From assembly GCA_002724675.1 (NCBI GenBank), contig PBPL01000255.1:23553-87552 (forward strand): a stretch of 64,000 nucleotides of DNA, read 5' to 3'. The notes beneath the pieces were generated by a model, which made no database searches, was not told the origin of the DNA, and saw only the letters and a program-made list of their open reading frames with translations. This document shows, in pieces, positions 2,026 through 18,984 of the stretch; position 1 is the first letter of the stretch, and each line of letters starts with the position of its first letter. The translations under genes were made by a program, and so were the position numbers. Origin of the DNA: Deltaproteobacteria bacterium (GTDB taxonomy: Bacteria > Myxococcota_A > UBA796 > UBA9615).

Positions 2026-5000
2026 TTGCACCCGATGTCCCCCACAGGAAGTGTGCCACTCGCTGTCGTCCGGACCCTGATGGCAGTCCGCAGACGTCGT
2101 CGGCTGCTCGCGGGCCTCCAAGCTCTCGCGTGGATGCTCGGGGGACTCGCTGTCTTGTTCGCGCTGGGAGGGCTGGTTGCGTCGAGCCCGCCCCACAGAG
2201 TCAACCCCTGGCTCCAGCAGGGCGCGAGGCTGTGGCTGGTGGCTGCGCTGGCCGGGCCTGTGGCCTTATTTCTGATCCCAGCATGGCGGCGGACGAGCTC
2301 CCTGTTGGCGTTGGCCAGAGCCATCGACGATCGAGTCCCGGAGACCCGAGACTCCCTGATGACCGCAGTCGATCTGGCCCACGCGCTGGACTCGGGAGCG
2401 CTGGAGACCGACGAACAGACCCGTAGGCTCGCCCATGCTCACCTGGGCCAAGCGGAACGCTGGTCGGCTTCAGTCTCAGCCCTCGAGCTCTTGCCTCTCT
2501 CGGTGCTCGGACGTCGGACCCTCGTAGGCCCTGTAGTTGCCGCCGTGGTGGCAGCCGCCATGGTCCACAGCGCGCTGCCGCTCGGCTCGGGTCTGCGACA
2601 GCTGTTGGGGCCCAGTCCCGCGCTGGCCGAGGACGGCCTGTCGGACGCAGGCACGGCCTCCCTGGTTCTCAGGAACCTCAACCTCACCCTGACACCTCCG
2701 GCGTATTCGGGACGGGAGGAGCTCGTCCTGGAGGGCACCAGTGGTGATTTTCAGGCTCTGCCAGGAACCCGAGTCACGCTGAGCGCCGATCTTCCCGCGG
2801 GAGGAAGGCAGTTGACCTGGCACTGGGGAGGCGACGATGCCGTCGCCCACCCCGTGGAGGGGACCCATGTCTCGTTCCCCTTCGTGGTCCCTGGCCGGGG
2901 GCACTACCACCTGAGCTTGGAGCGCGCGCTGGGACGTTCCGAGCTGCAGACCCGAAGATTCCGGGTACAGGCACTTCCCGACAATCCCCCCGAGCTGGAG
3001 GTGTCTGCGCCAGCCGGGACCGTCGACCTTCGCTCCGAGGACGAAATCCAGATTCAGATCCGCGCAGCCGACGACTTCTCCCTCTCTCGCCTGGAGCGCG
3101 TCGTGATGGCGGGTGATCGAGAGATCGCTCGAGTTCCCATCGCCGACGTGGCGAGACAAGCCGAGTGGAGCGGCGCCATGCCCTGGCACCCAGGACTGGA
3201 CTTGAGCGACCAGGGGGGGGATGTGGAGATGATCATCGAGGCCTGGGACAACGACACGGTCAATGGACCCAAGGTCACCCGCTCGCGGCCCATCGAGATC
3301 TACGTGCCAACGGCGAGGGACCAACATCGCCGGGCCCTCAACCTCAAGCAACGACTCCTCAACGAGTCCTTGGACTTCCTCGCCACCTTGCTGGTGGATG
3401 ACTACGGCGCATCTGCTCAGGTGCGCATGCGCGACGAAGTGCTGGCGCAGTTCGACCGGCAGCACCATCTGGCCCTGGCCGTCTTGACGACGGCGTCCGA
3501 GTTGTCGACCACCCTTCAACAAGATCGCTACGAGCGGCGCTCTGTGTTTCTGGGGATCAGCCAGGCGGTCGAGAATCTGGCTCGCCGTTGGCAAACCGTG
3601 GTGGAGCTGGTCGAGACCGAGATCCGAGCGGGGCAGAGCTCCGCTGTGCACCCCATCTTGGTGGGCCAGCTGCTCACCAGTCGGCGGAACGTAGCCCAAG
3701 AGCTGGAACGGGTCGTCATCGATCTCTCTGCGTTCATCCAACTTCAGCAAGGTGAAGAGGCGTTGGACCAGCTGGCCGACACCGAGCCCCTGCTGTCCGA
3801 CCTGGCAGACCTGGTGCGCCAGGCACAAGATGGGAAGCCGGTGCAAGACGCCCTCGCCCAAGCATTGGATGAGCTGGCGGAGCGCCTCGACGAGGTCGCC
3901 CGAAAGCTGGCCGAGCGAAGCCGCGGTCCGGACGAGGGCTTCGCCAACCGTCTTCCTTCCGACCTAGCCCCCGGCATGTTGGAGCAGATCCAGCAACTCC
4001 TTGCCGAGGGGCGGTACGACGAAGCCATGGAGCGTGTCCAGCAAGCCATGGATGCAGTCAGCGACTTGGCAGAGAACCTCAACCAGGAGCGCGAAAATCA
4101 AGCAGGCAGCCAAGAGGCCCAGCAGCTGGCTCAGCAGCTGGACGAGGTCATCCAGGAGACCCAACGTCTCGAGCAGGAGCAAGAGGAACTCATCGAAGCG
4201 ACTCAGGAGCTGGAGCGGCGATTCGGGAGCGGCGAACCCCTGAGCGAGCAATCCCGACGGGAGCTGGCTGAGGACATGGACCGGCTCCATCGCTTGATTC
4301 AGGACTTGCCCGTCACTCCTCTCCCAGCCCGGGCGCAAGGAGCCGTACGGCAGCGGGCTCGGCTCGCTGAGCGCATGAGCGCGCAGATGCGCGAGGCCTA
4401 CGAGGAAGGGGATCTGGACGAGGCCATCGAGCTCGGGGAGACCGGCGAGGCCTATCTGGACGACATGGACGGGGATCTGGCGCGCAGCCAGGATCTCGGG
4501 GAGGCACTCCGTCGCGACGCTCGCAGCGAGGTCATGGAGGCCCAGGGCTTGGCGCACAGCATCGTGGAGCGCATGCGACGAGGTCGCCGCCAAGCCGAGG
4601 CATCCCGTCAGCAGGCGAGCGGCGCAGGGCAGGGGGTTCGCCAGCGGCAAGGCACGCTGCGGCAAGGGGTCCAAGCACTCCGTCAGCAGACCGAGCGCAT
4701 TGGCGGGTCAGCGTTCAACCCAGTGGCTGGGCGAGACAGCCTCGACGCAGCGGGCGAGCTCATGGAGAGAGCCGGCCAACGACTGGGGGGTGGGCAGCCC
4801 TCCCACGCGCTGGCGGCCGAACAGGACGCTCTCGGGCAGCTGCGCCAGTTCCGGGAATCGCTCGAGGCCAGTCGCATGGCCATGCAGAGTGGCGGGTCCA
4901 TGGGAGCGGGCGCGATGGCTCGCTCCGGCTCTGGCCGGTCCAGTCTTGGCTCGAGGCCCCGATCCGATGGCATCCTCGGTGAGTCGGGCAATCAGGACGT

Positions 5001-16386: not shown

Positions 16387-16866
16387 TCAGGCAGCAGGGC
16401 CGGGGCGCAGCCCAATGGCACGAAAGGCCTTGTAGTCCTGCAAGATGGTCCCGTGATCGAAGGCCATGTCGTCGGGCAACTCGTCCACACTGAAGGCTTC
16501 CACCTCGGCGGCATCGGAGCCGGCTCGAGGCCCGGCGCCCCCCACGGGGCGAGCGATGTACACCACAGTCATGGTGTGGTGCCGAGGATCTCGATCCGGG
16601 TGAGAGTAGACCGCTAAGAATTCCTTCAGCTCGACCCGTAGACCGGTCTCTTCGAGCACCTCACGACGCGCGGCATCTTCGGAGGACTCGCCGTAATCGA
16701 TAAAGCCACCCGGAAGCGCCCAGCCCAGAGGCTCATTCTTCCGTCGCACCAGCACGATCAGCCCGCGGCCTAGCTCGACGATCACGTCGACTGTGGGGTA
16801 GGGATTCCTAGGCTTGGAGAGCCCTCCTGGGTCCGGACTGTCGGCCTCGGAGGACCCGTCAGTCAT
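16387..16866 (-). CDS. Nudix hydrolase
   Basis: Nudix box GGFIDYGESSEDAARREVLEETGL (GX5EX7REUXEEXGU pattern). Confidence 0.8.
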   Translation of the reverse strand: MTDGSSEADSPDPGGLSKPRNPYPTVDVIVELGRGLIVLVRRKNEPLGWALPGGFIDYGESSEDAARREVLEETGLRVELKEFLAVYSHPDRDPRHHTMTVVYIARPVGGAGPRAGSDAAEVEAFSVDELPDDMAFDHGTILQDYKAFRAIGLRPGPAA

Positions 16867-17959
16867 GAACTATGGGGCCATGCTGTCGCCGGGGTCGTTC
16901 CCGAGTGAGCTGTGCGCCAGCCGACCGGATCTGCTTGACGGTCCACCCCTCCTGAATCGCCACGTCCGCGTCGACTCCGGCCTTCAGAATCTCTTCGGCC
17001 TTGAAGATGGATAGTCGCCCCGTCTCGATGGCATCTCGCAGGGCGTCATCCTGGGCCACCCTCAGGTAGCGCTGCAGTGTGCGCTTCCGACGGCCGGTGA
17101 TCCGCTCAATCTCTCGCAGGGCCACTTGATCCTCGTGGAGGCGAAGGGTCGACTGGAGCCGCTGCAGTGGTGTGTTCTCGTGAGCCGGACTGCGGGGATT
17201 CTCCATAATCTTCAGCCTGCGGCAGTCGTCTTCGCTGACGCCGCGCCACACGATGGCAGGCACCTTGCGCATCTGAAGCTGCCTGGCCGCCGTGAGTCGT
17301 CGGAATCCGCGAATGACTTGAAAGTAACCGTCCTCGCGTTCCCGCAGAACCAGCGGCTGCCGGACACCCTCTACCTTGAGACTGCGGAGCAGCGACTCGC
17401 TTGGCGCCGTGGTTCCGTCAGCAAAGGTGCGATCCTTGGGGTCGATGCGACCGATGGAGATCTGCTCCACGAGATCCTGCTCTGCGCTGTCCCGATCGAA
17501 GCTCTCGCCGGAACCCGAGGGCGTGCTCACCAGCTCCAGCAAGCTTCGCTGACCCAGGCCTTCGGCCAGAACCGGCCGCTCAGGCATTACCTTGTGCTCT
17601 GGCTCGAGCACGAGCACGCCATCCTCCAACTCCCAGAGCATCCGGGTGCTCTGCTCCATCTGAAAGGGGAATGTGCGGGGCAGGACGATCCGATCCTGCG
17701 AGCCCAGACGAAGTGAGATCCCAGACCGCACCGCCGCCAGATACGGGTGCTCCTGATCCGGAAAGAGCTTTTGAACCTGCTCCGCCATCTCGCAGTGCCT
17801 CTCCCAAGCTCCCGCGGGGAAGACATAGAGCTTCTCGCGTACCGCCGAGACCACGATTGGATCGCCCCGCTCGATGCCGTGCGCATGGAGAAATTCAGCC
17901 GGAATACTCAGTCGTCGTTCCTTAGCGATGTACTTCACTCGGCGTGTCAGCTTGCCCAT
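16859..17959 (-). CDS. Chimeric DNA-binding protein: N-terminal MraZ/AbrB (SpoVT) swapped-hairpin-like domain plus a ParB/Srx N-terminal domain and HTH
   Basis: N-terminus KERRLSIPAEFLHAHGIERGDPIVV resembles the MraZ/AbrB DNA-binding motif (GRLSIP…). Residues about 195–225 YFQVIRGFRRLTAARQLQMRKVPAIVW align with the ParB box II / arginine patch (ELIAGERRWRAAKLAGLKEIPAIV). An HTH-like segment ITGRRKRTLQRYLRV follows. The stop overlaps the Nudix start by 8 nt. Confidence 0.55.
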   Translation of the reverse strand: MGKLTRRVKYIAKERRLSIPAEFLHAHGIERGDPIVVSAVREKLYVFPAGAWERHCEMAEQVQKLFPDQEHPYLAAVRSGISLRLGSQDRIVLPRTFPFQMEQSTRMLWELEDGVLVLEPEHKVMPERPVLAEGLGQRSLLELVSTPSGSGESFDRDSAEQDLVEQISIGRIDPKDRTFADGTTAPSESLLRSLKVEGVRQPLVLREREDGYFQVIRGFRRLTAARQLQMRKVPAIVWRGVSEDDCRRLKIMENPRSPAHENTPLQRLQSTLRLHEDQVALREIERITGRRKRTLQRYLRVAQDDALRDAIETGRLSIFKAEEILKAGVDADVAIQEGWTVKQIRSAGAQLTRERPRRQHGPIVHD

Positions 17960-17985
17960 CGACTCGTCCTCGCTCCCAGGTCGCC

Positions 17986-17999
17986 AGCCCCATGGGGCT
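17986..17999. promoter_or_regulatory. 14 bp perfect palindrome AGCCCCATGGGGCT, 27–40 bp upstream of the ParB/MraZ-like gene start. Candidate operator.
   Basis: Read directly: a86…t99 are self-complementary. It lies in the 5' region of the minus-strand gene starting at 17959. Confidence 0.3.
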
Positions 18000-18164
18000 C
18001 TTGGTGGCGACGTCCCTGTGGACAGTTCCGCTTCTTCAGGGCCTCTCGGCCTACCTACGACGCTATCGGCGCATGGTAAAAGCTGTCAACCCTCACCACT
18101 CAAGACGAGCATTGGTTTTGATCAAACGGGGCCAATGGTAAGGATGTGTTAAGTAATTAAGCTA

Positions 18165-18205
18165 TTGAAGTTACAGAGAATACACTGATAATACATACAT
18201 GTATG
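18165..18205 (+). promoter_or_regulatory. Sigma70-like promoter (TTGAAG-N17-ATAATA) inside an AT-rich island, immediately followed by the 12 bp perfect palindrome CATACATGTATG (18194–18205)
   Basis: -35 TTGAAG at 18165–18170, a 17 nt spacer, -10 ATAATA at 18188–18193. The palindrome starts 1 nt after the -10. The region from about 18100 to 18230 is AT-rich, unlike the rest of the window. Confidence 0.35.
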
Positions 18206-18459
18206 AAGCTGCATGCCAATTGATGGTAAAGACATTGGAACGGTTTCGTGGCCTGAGCGGCGCTGTCCACCGCAGTCTGCGGCTCAGCGGTGTGGAAAAC
18301 CTGTGGATAAAACTGCCCAGGTGGGGCCTTGAGCTTCAGTTACCCACAGACCGCTGGGGCAGAGTCTCCCGGGTGGCGTGGGTTGGCTTGGCCGGGAACC
18401 TGCGCCGGTGCTGGCGCCGGGCCTCGAACTAGCTGGGACGGGGACGCCGCCAACGGACA

Positions 18460-18984
18460 GTGGCTGCTATCATTCGAGCCGCCCCAAAGAAGAAGTGGAG
18501 CCCCCCAGTGGCTGGAGCAGAACAGAGCATTTATGTAGGTGTCCGACCCGAGACTCTCTTCTCGGTCATTACGGACTATGAGAGTTATCCGCAGTTCCTG
18601 TCGGACATGGAGGACGCGAAGGTCGTCAGCCGGGACGGATCGGTGGTGGAAGTGGAGTTCACGCTCAACCTCATCAAGCGGGTTCGATACACGCTTCGAC
18701 TCACTGAAGAAGCCCCCAACAAGGTGTCCTGGAGCCTGGTCGAAGGAATGTTCAAGCGCAACGATGGGAGCTGGCGGCTGGTGGAGCAGCCCGATGGACG
18801 CACCAAGGCGACGTACCGGATCGAGCTCGCCGTTGGCGTCTTCTTGCCCGGCGCCATTGTGCATCGGCTCGTGGGTCAAACCCTGCCGGCCACGCTCGAA
18901 GCCTTTCGGGACAGGGCCGAGGCCCAGGCCATCGAGAAGGGGCCGGGCTTCGTTGATGAGGCTGGCTCCGAGGACAGCCCTTGA
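18460..18984 (+). CDS. SRPBCC-family (polyketide cyclase/dehydrase / RatA-like START fold) protein
   Basis: YESYPQFLSDMEDAKVVSRDGSVVEVEFTLNLIKRVRYTLRLTEE… is typical of the Polyketide_cyc2/SRPBCC family. The start codon is uncertain. Confidence 0.55.
   Translation: MAAIIRAAPKKKWSPPVAGAEQSIYVGVRPETLFSVITDYESYPQFLSDMEDAKVVSRDGSVVEVEFTLNLIKRVRYTLRLTEEAPNKVSWSLVEGMFKRNDGSWRLVEQPDGRTKATYRIELAVGVFLPGAIVHRLVGQTLPATLEAFRDRAEAQAIEKGPGFVDEAGSEDSP

Follow-up and report, generated by a model that had tools for sequence, protein, structure and literature searches.

The stretch of DNA analysed here (the window, 64,000 nucleotides) contains a long non-coding region between a minus-strand gene, whose product combines an MraZ-like and a ParB-like module, and a divergent gene for an SRPBCC protein. 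A sequence-only reading had described this region as a 500 bp intergenic gap with an AT-rich island, two perfect palindromes and a sigma70-like promoter, TTGAAG-N17-ATAATA. All these elements are present where that reading placed them, and GC-rich non-coding DNA does lie between the AT-rich block and the SRPBCC open reading frame (Table 1). The region is also the longest true non-coding stretch of the window, the other apparent gaps left by crude gene calling being occupied by long open reading frames. Its length, however, is probably 548 bp rather than 500, since the conservation of the SRPBCC protein begins at VAGAEQ, encoded from 18508, which fits a GTG start candidate at that position with a GGAG 8 nt upstream. 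Among the features first listed, only the length of the gap and the AT-rich island are outliers in their own right. In particular, the AT-rich block (about 18100-18240) is a genuine outlier, as the 130 nt starting at 18111 have 35.4% GC against 64.8% overall, by a wide margin the lowest value for any segment of this size (the next lowest being 48.5%).

Table 1. Positions of the genes and sequence elements at the locus (numbering of the window)
Feature	Position	Strand	Remarks
Non-coding control region	17960-18507		no convincing ORF; ends at 18459 by the longest-ORF rule, probably at 18507
AT-rich island	18111-18240		35% GC; contains TTACCAT repeats 2 and 3 and the 12-bp palindrome
Controlled gene	16859-17959	-	366 aa; MraZ-like double AbrB fold, ParB-CTPase fold and HTH
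NUDIX gene	16387-16866	-	first 8 nt shared with the end of the controlled gene
-35 hexamer TTGACA	18084-18089	-	invariant in 19/19 aligned lineages
-10 hexamer TAGCGT (TAnnnT)	18060-18065	-	18 nt after the -35; T, A and final T invariant in the alignment
TTACCAT repeat 1	18073-18079	-	inside the promoter spacer; TTACCA invariant in 19/19; candidate operator
TTACCAT repeat 2	18135-18141	-	62 bp upstream of repeat 1
TTACCAT repeat 3	18223-18229	-	88 bp upstream of repeat 2; TTACGAT in L003
Double DnaA box TTATCCACA-GG-TTTTCCACA	18291-18310	-	tandem, same orientation, 2-bp spacer; score 17/18
Third DnaA-like box TTACCCACA	18340-18348	+	inverted; 1 mismatch; near clade keeps TTGCCCACA (L003) or CTTTCCACA (L009, L036)
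Weak DnaA-like box CTGTCCACA	18017-18025	-	in the 5'UTR, at about +29 to +37 relative to the predicted start
12-bp palindrome CATACATGTATG	18194-18205		family consensus aCATACnnGTATGTat; aCATACnnGTATGT in the direction of the gene
14-bp palindrome AGCCCCATGGGGCT	17986-17999		in the 5'UTR; not kept in L003 or any other lineage
GC-rich palindrome GCGCCGGTGCTGGCGC	18402-18417		family form GCGCCA-N4-TGGCGC
Promoter-like TTGAAG-N17-ATAATA	18165-18193	+	matches at 9/12 positions; not conserved

The product of the minus-strand gene has an N-terminal domain of the MraZ fold (residues 1-122), of the AbrB/MraZ swapped-hairpin class, followed by a ParB_N match (Pfam, 1e-11); within the ParB-HTH part (residues 150-366), residues 177-325 match ParB and Noc in a profile search of PDB. 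The ParB N-domain with its GxxR motif is accompanied by an HTH, and both the GFRRL segment and the HTH are conserved, with ParB box III (ENxxR) being poorly kept in the family and lying in a segment predicted to be disordered. This family is narrow, with about 5-7 full-length cluster representatives among 1.84 billion. A literature search found no paper on an MraZ/AbrB-ParB fusion, and a survey of ParB-fold fusions published in 2025 has no mention, in its main text, of one with MraZ or AbrB. The NUDIX gene that follows is probably co-transcribed with the controlled gene in one operon, an order common to lineages L011 and L014 and not found in L003 or L009.

For comparison, 22 orthologous loci (window included) of uncultured marine bacteria were gathered by protein search and contig look-ups, some counts being based on the first 19 lineages; a protein search of species genomes returned two distant Bacillota relatives only, unusable for footprinting. 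The source names attached to the loci ('Rickettsiales bacterium', 'Deltaproteobacteria bacterium') are unreliable, hence the broad designation used here. Long contigs with the locus include ERZ24794639 NODE_2 (930 kb, at 242-251 kb), PBHG01000016.1 (372 kb, at 200-209 kb) and OWNT01000083 (297 kb). In the relatives a gap of 325-675 bp is retained upstream of the orthologous gene, both where the divergent SRPBCC gene lies beyond it and where a co-directional epimerase gene does. Many relatives do not have the SRPBCC gene next to the gap at all. Since the upstream gap is retained whichever gene lies beyond it, it goes with the minus-strand gene and not with the SRPBCC gene. Only the lower-GC relatives have a strong AT-rich island, with GC minima of 0.28-0.35 in segments of 80 nt; in the others it is weak (0.40-0.53), and it is not conserved among GC-rich relatives. 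The GC-rich stretch of the gap cannot be aligned between relatives, save for motifs that resemble protein-binding sites. The gap very probably represents a conserved promoter and operator region of the gene at 16859-17959. The earlier idea of a conserved regulatory region beside the ParB/MraZ-like gene holds for the region as such and for its 12-bp palindrome, but not for the plus-strand promoter and the 14-bp palindrome.

Other contents of the gap were considered and rejected. A 77-aa open reading frame (18199-18432) has no family match and aligns to L003 only with frameshifting gaps; a mobile-element remnant found no blastn match in plasmids or phages. A search for tRNA and tmRNA genes detected none. 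In addition, none of the motifs of the gap is present at a paralog found in a phage context (L016/L017).

A conserved promoter and an array of candidate sites

Read in the direction of the gene, the gap holds a sigma70-type promoter of the form TTGACA-N18-TAnnnT (18060-18089, minus strand), overlooked in the sequence-only reading. Of the 21 loci compared with the window, 20 share its exact form, and the remaining one, the most divergent (L042), has a -35 with one mismatch, TTGACG. A generic promoter scan misses it because its -10 matches TATAAT at only 3/6 positions. The extended motif TTGACA-N4-TTACCA lies upstream of the gene in all of the 18 other loci of the first comparison and also in L040 and L041 of the divergent clade. 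The window contains it once, and it has no occurrence elsewhere in 106 kb. Transcription is predicted to start at about 18052-18055 on the minus strand, which would give a 5'UTR of about 95 nt.

The TTACCA word in the spacer of this promoter is one copy of a direct repeat, TTACCA(Y) on the coding strand, that the earlier description had also missed. All three TTACCAT copies of the 64 kb sit in the gap, on one strand. In the upstream regions of the family (9.9 kb) TTACCA is found 38 times in the forward and once in the reverse orientation, that is 3.84 per kb as compared to 0.025 per kb per strand outside, an enrichment of about 150-fold that concerns one strand only. The distance between successive copies is 61-63 bp in 8 cases and 21 bp in 3, corresponding to six or two helical turns. 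In 9/21 lineages the region 59-65 bp upstream of the TTACCA in the spacer holds a copy with at most one mismatch, as compared to 10/189 control windows. Repeat 3 is the least conserved copy, being degenerate in L003. The reverse complement, TGGTAA, contains the AbrB-type word TGGNA, and TTACCA differs from canonical MraZ boxes in both sequence and spacing. Across the lineages the invariant TTACCA tracks the invariant protein, those lacking DnaA boxes included, and for the gene's own product as the protein that binds these repeats we would put the chances at about even.

A cluster of DnaA boxes, likewise absent from the first description, lies further upstream. Specifically, the window has five DnaA boxes with at most one mismatch, and three of them fall within 58 bp, at 18291-18348; the sole perfect box of the 64 kb, TTATCCACA, belongs to the double box, whose other 9-mer has one mismatch. 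In 14/19 lineages a double box with a 2-3 bp spacer scores 14-18 out of 18, against a background maximum of 13/18 over 642,000 positions, and L022 reaches 18/18. Many lineages have the full 9/9 DnaA consensus, with conservation reaching the TT(A/G/T)T upstream of CCACA, where the variable third position (A/G/T) is a known degenerate position of the DnaA box. The weak box in the 5'UTR has retained its CCACAG core in 15/19 lineages, and proximal and distal boxes go together, both being present in 14 lineages and neither in 5. The boxes are biased in orientation (32 forward, 4 reverse). They are absent in 6/22 lineages (L023, L024, L029, L030, L034, L042) that keep the promoter and the TTACCA repeats, so that the family can do without an input from DnaA. 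E. coli ChIP-seq data indicate that DnaA, at its regulatory targets, prefers pairs of boxes in the same orientation, 2-3 bp apart (PMC11317965).

The palindromes differ in what comparison reveals. Their number in the window is at or below chance, with 16 perfect 12-bp palindromes against 25 +/- 5 in shuffled sequences and 3 perfect 14-bp palindromes against 6.8 +/- 2.6. The 14-bp palindrome shows no conservation even in L003 and is kept in no relative. The 12-bp palindrome, whose frequency alone is at chance level, is kept in the main clade and looks like an operator: it aligns in 18 lineages of this clade, about 110 bp upstream of the -35, with C2, A5, C6, T10 and G13 invariant, it is perfect in 7 other loci, and it does not occur elsewhere in 106 kb. 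Its arms are conserved and its centre is free, and it persists where the SRPBCC gene is not the neighbour. The alignment has 18 unpaired cells, with compensatory changes numbering 0, which excludes a hairpin under selection for pairing; a site for a protein on duplex DNA is the probable explanation. Its absence from the divergent clade (L015/L040-L042), in spite of an identical HTH in the protein, weakens the case for the HTH as its reader. To our knowledge, none of the consensuses for LexA variants, NrdR, Fur/Zur, CopY/BlaI (TACAnnTGTA) or TyrR fits the CATAC palindrome or TGTAAA-N4-TTTACA. A further palindromic motif, GCGCCA-N4-TGGCGC, is found at >=11/12 positions in 11/22 upstream regions as compared to 4 occurrences in 177 kb of background; in the window the block 18393-18419 has 25/26 identity to L003, with flanks that are not conserved.

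Readings of the region and their weight

The elements described above can be combined in a composite model, which we consider moderately likely as a whole: the gap would be a multi-input, DnaA-coupled and probably autoregulated promoter of the MraZ-ParB gene. As concerns its parts, DnaA is a likely reader of the TCCACAG boxes. A DnaA dimer on the double box would also contact the weak box downstream, and its binding would couple transcription of the gene to the state of replication initiation, most likely by repression, the sign of the effect being a guess. The gene product, probably as an oligomer formed through its MraZ-like domain, would bind the phased TTACCA repeats and, by occluding the promoter spacer, regulate its own synthesis. 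The 12-bp palindrome would be bound by a dimeric protein, either the product through its own HTH or a separate, clade-specific factor. Finally, the AT-rich island could serve as bendable spacer DNA within the array of sites, exaggerated in lower-GC species.

Two other readings concern the function of the region. The one implied by the sequence-only description places a plus-strand sigma70 promoter at 18165-18193, with the palindrome as operator at +1, ahead of a long structured 5'UTR of the SRPBCC gene or of a small RNA. A promoter scan does call this site, the gap must contain a promoter for the SRPBCC gene, and the 12-bp palindrome shows conservation. However, one site in the region as compared to 0.4 +/- 0.6 expected is in the chance range, and the surrounding block is poorly conserved relative to L003. 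TTGAAG-N17-ATAATA is confined to the window, having no equivalent at the same place in L003 (90% identity) or L009, so that the operator-over-+1 geometry is window-specific and falls together with the promoter, and the palindrome is kept where the SRPBCC gene is not adjacent. The RNA part of this reading fares no better, since Rfam gives no match at E <= 10 in 17850-18600 and none that reaches the gathering score in the window or the 9 loci scanned, folding is not more stable than in shuffles (z = +0.88 for the plus strand, 18200-18507; z = -0.90 for the minus-strand 5'UTR), no covariation is detected, and the GC-rich stretch is unalignable; an RNA gene in the gap is rejected on these grounds. 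The reading as a whole is highly improbable, even if TTGAAG-N17-ATAATA could act as the SRPBCC promoter in the organism of the window. The other possibility is a chromosomal oriC, with DnaA boxes by an AT-rich unwinding element and an internal promoter as in the Caulobacter Cori. In its favour are the 3-4 clustered DnaA boxes, which lie at 60-190 bp from the 130-nt segment with the lowest GC of the window, several further conserved motifs resembling protein sites and an adjoining ParB-family gene. Nonetheless, about 55 bp of GC-rich DNA separate the boxes from the island; to the left of 18 kb the plus strand carries about 87% of the coding sequence, which a fork departing from the site would meet head-on; in the 64 kb examined GC skew has positive values before 14 kb and does not reach a minimum at 18 kb; signatures of dnaA, dnaN, gyrB, recF, parA and rpmH number zero in the 64 kb; and no DnaA-trio run is found. 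In addition, the boxes are lost in the six lineages named above with the remaining region retained, and the island is not conserved in GC-rich relatives. The gap is probably not a replication origin, the oriC reading keeping only a very slight chance.

Two further readings assign the sites to the gene product itself. Because the reverse complement of TCCACAG contains GTGG, the product could read the 'DnaA' boxes through its MraZ-like domain, DnaA having no part in a purely autoregulatory region. The N-terminal MraZ fold agrees with this, as do the GTGGA or GTGGG in the reverse complement of T/CCCACAG, similar to the promoter-adjacent GTGGG direct repeats of 10-bp period that form the E. coli MraZ boxes, the arrangement of the distal pair as direct repeats of 11-12 bp period, and the strong strand-specificity of the boxes. 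Against it, conservation extends beyond the GTGG word to TT(A/G/T)T, with the full DnaA consensus in many lineages and the perfect double box of L022. Only two adjacent copies are present, as opposed to three or more in MraZ operators, and an MraZ-type operator of at least three contiguous GTGGG-type direct repeats with 10-bp period was not found in the gap. Moreover, five lineages without boxes have identical MraZ-like loops (ERRLSIP, SQDRIVLP) and an identical HTH (ITGRRKRTLQRYLR), and the boxes are therefore probably read by another protein. On balance this reading is unlikely. The remaining alternative is that the gap is, or doubles as, a parS/OB-like loading site, where the product as an NTP-dependent clamp would load at CATACnnGTATG or at GCGCCA-N4-TGGCGC and slide to the promoter or beyond; such behaviour would resemble the long-range silencing by KorB, or else that of a centromere or an organiser of the nucleoid. 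In length the palindromes agree with parS/OB sites, their distance to the promoter is about 110 bp or more, and KorB is a precedent for control of a distant promoter (PMC11790492). Nevertheless, the canonical parS (TGTTNCACGTGAAACA) has 0 matches at <=3 mismatches in the 64 kb, no parA signature or ParA Walker motif is detected in the window, box III is not conserved, neither palindrome is universal in the family, and there is a single site per 64 kb. For these reasons we regard a loading site of this type as quite improbable. A bolder version, which we consider similarly improbable, would make the MraZ-ParB fusion a replication-coupled DNA clamp, switched on or off by DnaA, that loads at its own upstream array (the palindrome together with phased TTACCA on an MraZ-like oligomer) and then spreads. 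Were this clamp to exist, the gap would be both its loading site and its operator, and the system would either parallel, on a chromosome, the long-range silencing of the KorB type or organise the nucleoid or segregation in a new way.

Relation to known systems and significance

The proposed composite, DnaA-coupled promoter has partial parallels in well-studied bacteria. The double-box sites of E. coli (purH, polA, mutH/DARS2) likewise consist of two 9-mers similar to TTATCCACA, in the same orientation and 2-3 bp apart, upstream of a promoter (PMC11317965). The predicted pair in the gap differs in its upstream distance to the -35, about 220 bp for the main clade and 16 bp for the divergent one, and in being partnered with a weak box in the 5'UTR. 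In P. aeruginosa, DnaA boxes ahead of the gidAB-parAB promoter, within oriCII, control an operon containing parAB (PMC13438810). Predicted DnaA boxes before the promoter of a ParB-family gene are common to both cases; however, the P. aeruginosa site is an origin-type region with a canonical parAB, while the gap has no origin signature, no parA and an MraZ-ParB fusion.

As for the putative autoregulation, the E. coli Pmra promoter offers a comparison, with an MraZ-fold protein, strand-specific direct repeats at its own sigma70 promoter and a repeat that is essentially confined there; autorepression by MraZ at Pmra was reportedly described by Eraso et al. in 2014. The gap differs from it in the word, TTACCA instead of GTGGG, in a spacing of 21 or 61-63 bp instead of contiguous 10-bp units, in the position of one repeat inside the promoter spacer, and in the additional ParB module and HTH of the protein. 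In Mollicutes the MraZ repeats are AAAGTG[T/G] (PMC8475190). AbrB, in turn, recognizes loosely defined, bipartite TGGNA sites, with pairs 4-5 bp apart (PMC3025583). The TGGNA word in the reverse complement of TTACCA and an N-terminal domain of the AbrB/MraZ class are shared with this system, whereas the word in the gap is 6-7 nt long, sharply conserved and widely spaced. Compared to KorB-OB of plasmid RK2 (PMC11790492), the MraZ-ParB locus is chromosomal and no KorA- or TrbA-like partner has been identified, box III is poorly kept and the sequences of the palindromes are unrelated.

As a kind of object, the gap is an ordinary one, that is, a multi-input bacterial promoter. What is gained is that an anonymous AT-rich gap resolves into precise candidate sites, namely a promoter, a double DnaA box, a phased repeat array and two palindromes, and that the replication initiator would become connected to an unstudied fusion of an MraZ fold, a ParB-CTPase fold and an HTH. 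If confirmed, the gene would represent a new member, outside model organisms, of the small set of genes under transcriptional control by DnaA, as well as a natural case of an MraZ-like domain and a ParB-like module acting on one DNA array.

The non-coding region and the gene it serves

The stretch between the MraZ-ParB gene and the SRPBCC gene is the longest real non-coding stretch of the window, since the other apparent gaps, which derive from crude gene calling, are occupied by long ORFs. Its length is probably 548 bp rather than the 500 bp assigned by the sequence-only reading, with the SRPBCC ORF probably starting at a GTG at 18508 and not at 18460. The conserved part of the SRPBCC protein starts with the residue whose codon is at 18508, and a GGAG lies eight nucleotides upstream. 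One and the same 9-mer, CAGTGGCTG, stands ahead of each candidate start and extends into it. That reading placed its two palindromes and a plus-strand promoter-like match exactly, and its AT-rich block is a true outlier in otherwise 65%-GC DNA: GC content falls to 35.4% in the 130 nt from 18111 onward, versus 48.5% for the runner-up among such windows in the 64 kb.

About 75 close cluster relatives of the MraZ-ParB product are found in marine metagenomes and MAGs. The footprinting sample consisted of 22 distinct orthologous loci, obtained by contig look-ups and one metagenome scan, and in all of them a gap of 325-675 bp lies upstream of the gene. The far neighbour is a divergent SRPBCC gene in the window and in the loci L003 and L009, and a co-directional epimerase gene in L011, L013, L015, L040 and L041. 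As the far neighbour varies while the gap stays, the region belongs to the MraZ-ParB gene and not to the SRPBCC gene. Synteny is lost precisely at the outer boundary of this control region (about 18460-18510 in the window, about 3440-3680 in the loci), beyond which the former group carries SRPBCC-TPR-hydrolase and the latter acyltransferase-epimerase; the downstream side is constant (aminotransferase, coaD-like, rsmD-like, GATase1-like).

The product of the gene joins a double AbrB fold of MraZ type to a ParB-CTPase fold and an HTH. In a profile search of the PDB, residues 177-325 of the product match ParB and Noc. The ParB GxRR motif is retained; box III (ENxxR) is not conserved. A full-length paralog of 46% identity (L016 4001-5071 and L017, P0074) adjoins a capsid-like gene in a phage-like context; it has no upstream gap, and no TTACCA, DnaA boxes or palindrome were found there.

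Coordinates of the features of the control region and its flanks
Feature	Position	Strand or orientation	Remarks
MraZ-ParB gene	16859-17959	-	366 aa; ParB N-domain, weak AbrB/MazE match
NUDIX gene			overlaps end of MraZ-ParB gene by 8 nt
14-mer palindrome AGCCCCATGGGGCT	17986-17999
Weak DnaA-like box CTGTCCACA	18017-18025		in 5'UTR
Hairpin GGCC-GAGA-GGCC	18036-18049	-	at predicted mRNA 5' end
Promoter -10 TAGCGT	18060-18065	-	TAnnnT invariant; 18-nt spacer holds one TTACCA
Promoter -35	18084-18089	-	invariant
TTACCAT direct repeats	18073, 18135, 18223	-	only three copies in whole window
TTGAAG-N17-ATAATA	18165-18193	+
12-mer palindrome CATACATGTATG	18194-18205		within conserved palindrome aCATACnnGTATGTat, which aligns in 18 main-clade lineages
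Candidate double DnaA box TTATCCACA-GG-TTTTCCACA	18291-18310	gene's orientation
DnaA-like box TTACCCACA	18340-18348	inverted
GC-rich palindrome GCGCCA-N4-TGGCGC	18402-18417		at least 11/12 match in 11/22 regions vs 4 in 177 kb
SRPBCC protein gene	18460/18508-18984	+
DnaA box TTATCCGCA	18585-18593	+	one mismatch

Promoter, TTACCA repeats and palindromes

Most of the gap is unalignable between relatives, and sharp conserved blocks stand out. The promoter facing the MraZ-ParB gene, cTTGACAsrAATTACCAyc-N7-TAnnnT, is invariant in the alignment. Of the earlier proposal, TTGAAG-N17-ATAATA, neither the -35 nor the -10 is conserved, even in L003 at 90% identity; promoter scans of L003 and L009 found no equivalent, and the single plus-strand site is within expectation (0.4 expected). 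Across the family the direct-repeat word, TTACCA(Y), occurs 38 times forward and once in reverse in 9.9 kb of upstream DNA, versus 0.025 per kb per strand elsewhere, and successive copies are spaced by 21 bp (three cases) or 61-63 bp (eight cases), which corresponds to two or six turns of the helix. The hairpin at the predicted mRNA 5' end is identical in L003 and not evident in more distant relatives. The -35 region GTTGACAGCTTTTACC (18074-18090, minus strand) resembles E. coli Pmra CTTGACAAGCTTTTCC (NC_000913 89550-89570), probably by coincidence, because other lineages read GAAATTACC or CGAATTACC there.

Taken alone, the palindromes are unremarkable: the window holds 16 perfect 12-mers (25 +/- 5 in shuffles) and 3 perfect 14-mers (6.8 +/- 2.6). 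The 14-mer is not kept even in L003, whereas the 12-mer is part of the conserved CATAC palindrome, which has no occurrence elsewhere in 106 kb of loci. As its centre is free and substitutions affect one arm at a time without a compensating change in the other, it is read as a putative duplex protein site and not a hairpin. Half of the lineages have the GC-rich motif GCGCCA-N4-TGGCGC, whose position varies and falls within the 5'UTR in L040 and L041; in L015 it is part of a 22-bp perfect palindrome, TCTGCGCCAATATTGGCGCAGA, located 254 bp upstream of the gene at about 3744-3765.

The divergent-clade loci L015, L040 and L041 have the elements of the control region in a compact arrangement: a double box lies 16 bp ahead of the -35, about 25 bp after the -10 comes a perfect single DnaA box, and TTACCA is present three or four times, in steps of 21 and 61 bp; the CATAC palindrome was not found in these upstream regions. 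L042 has promoter and repeats only. Promoter and phased TTACCA repeats thus form the universal core, to which the main clade has added an AT-rich spacer along with the CATAC palindrome.

DnaA-type boxes

DnaA boxes with at most one mismatch number five in the window, three of them, including the sole perfect one, inside one 58-bp segment of the gap. The double-box score (2-3 bp spacer) reaches 14-18/18 in 14 of the first 19 lineages, with 18/18 in L022, and the background maximum is 13/18 among 642,000 positions. At its regulatory targets, E. coli DnaA prefers paired boxes with such a spacer (PMC11317965). The proximal weak box is present exactly where the distal pair is and absent in the five lineages without it; overall, 16 of 22 lineages carry DnaA boxes. 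The box inside the SRPBCC coding sequence may be chance. In the box-less subclade (L023, L024, L029, L030, L034) another palindrome, TGTAAA-N4-TTTACA, occupies the corresponding place some 250-270 bp ahead of the gene, so that one regulatory input looks to have been swapped for another.

A possible DnaA-coupled, autoregulated promoter

The MraZ-like loops (ERRLSIP, SQDRIVLP) and the HTH are unchanged in the five box-less lineages, and the boxes are therefore assigned to a separate protein. The full 9-mer consensus, the choice of A, G or T at the third position of the box and the pairing at 2-3 bp suggest that this protein would be DnaA. That the product itself binds the "DnaA" boxes is a live minority reading, MraZ boxes being GTGG-type direct repeats. 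The invariant TTACCA word, on the other hand, tracks the invariant product and has a copy within the promoter spacer, and its reverse complement TGGTAA contains the AbrB-type TGGNA word (PMC3025583); we infer from the sequences that TTACCA is the product's own putative operator. An oligomer of the product would bind the TTACCA copies on one helix face, and the whole would constitute a DnaA-coupled, autoregulated promoter, for which DnaA control of a ParB-family operon in P. aeruginosa offers a precedent (PMC13438810). The CATAC palindrome may be a target of the HTH of the product, in an arrangement like that of KorB (PMC11790492), or of a clade-specific factor, the latter being mildly favoured because the palindrome is absent from the divergent clade despite an identical HTH.

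DnaA boxes next to an AT island would also fit an oriC, but the evidence goes against it: about 87% of genes left of the site lie on the plus strand, GC skew is positive on that side and has no minimum at this position, the 64 kb hold no dnaA, dnaN, gyrB, recF, parA or rpmH signatures, no DnaA-trios were found, and one subclade does without the boxes. The long structured 5' UTR or small RNA envisaged at the outset gained no support from the Rfam search, folding z-scores or covariation, and an RNA element was rejected.

The MraZ-ParB-HTH fusion family is narrow, counting only about 5-7 full-length representatives in a set of 1.84 billion clusters at 50% identity. A literature search found no paper on this fusion, and the main text of a survey of ParB-fold fusions mentions no MraZ or AbrB fusion. 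A multi-input promoter is a known kind of object; the new elements here are the phased arrangement of TTACCA copies, their combination with a double DnaA box, and the gene served by this region.
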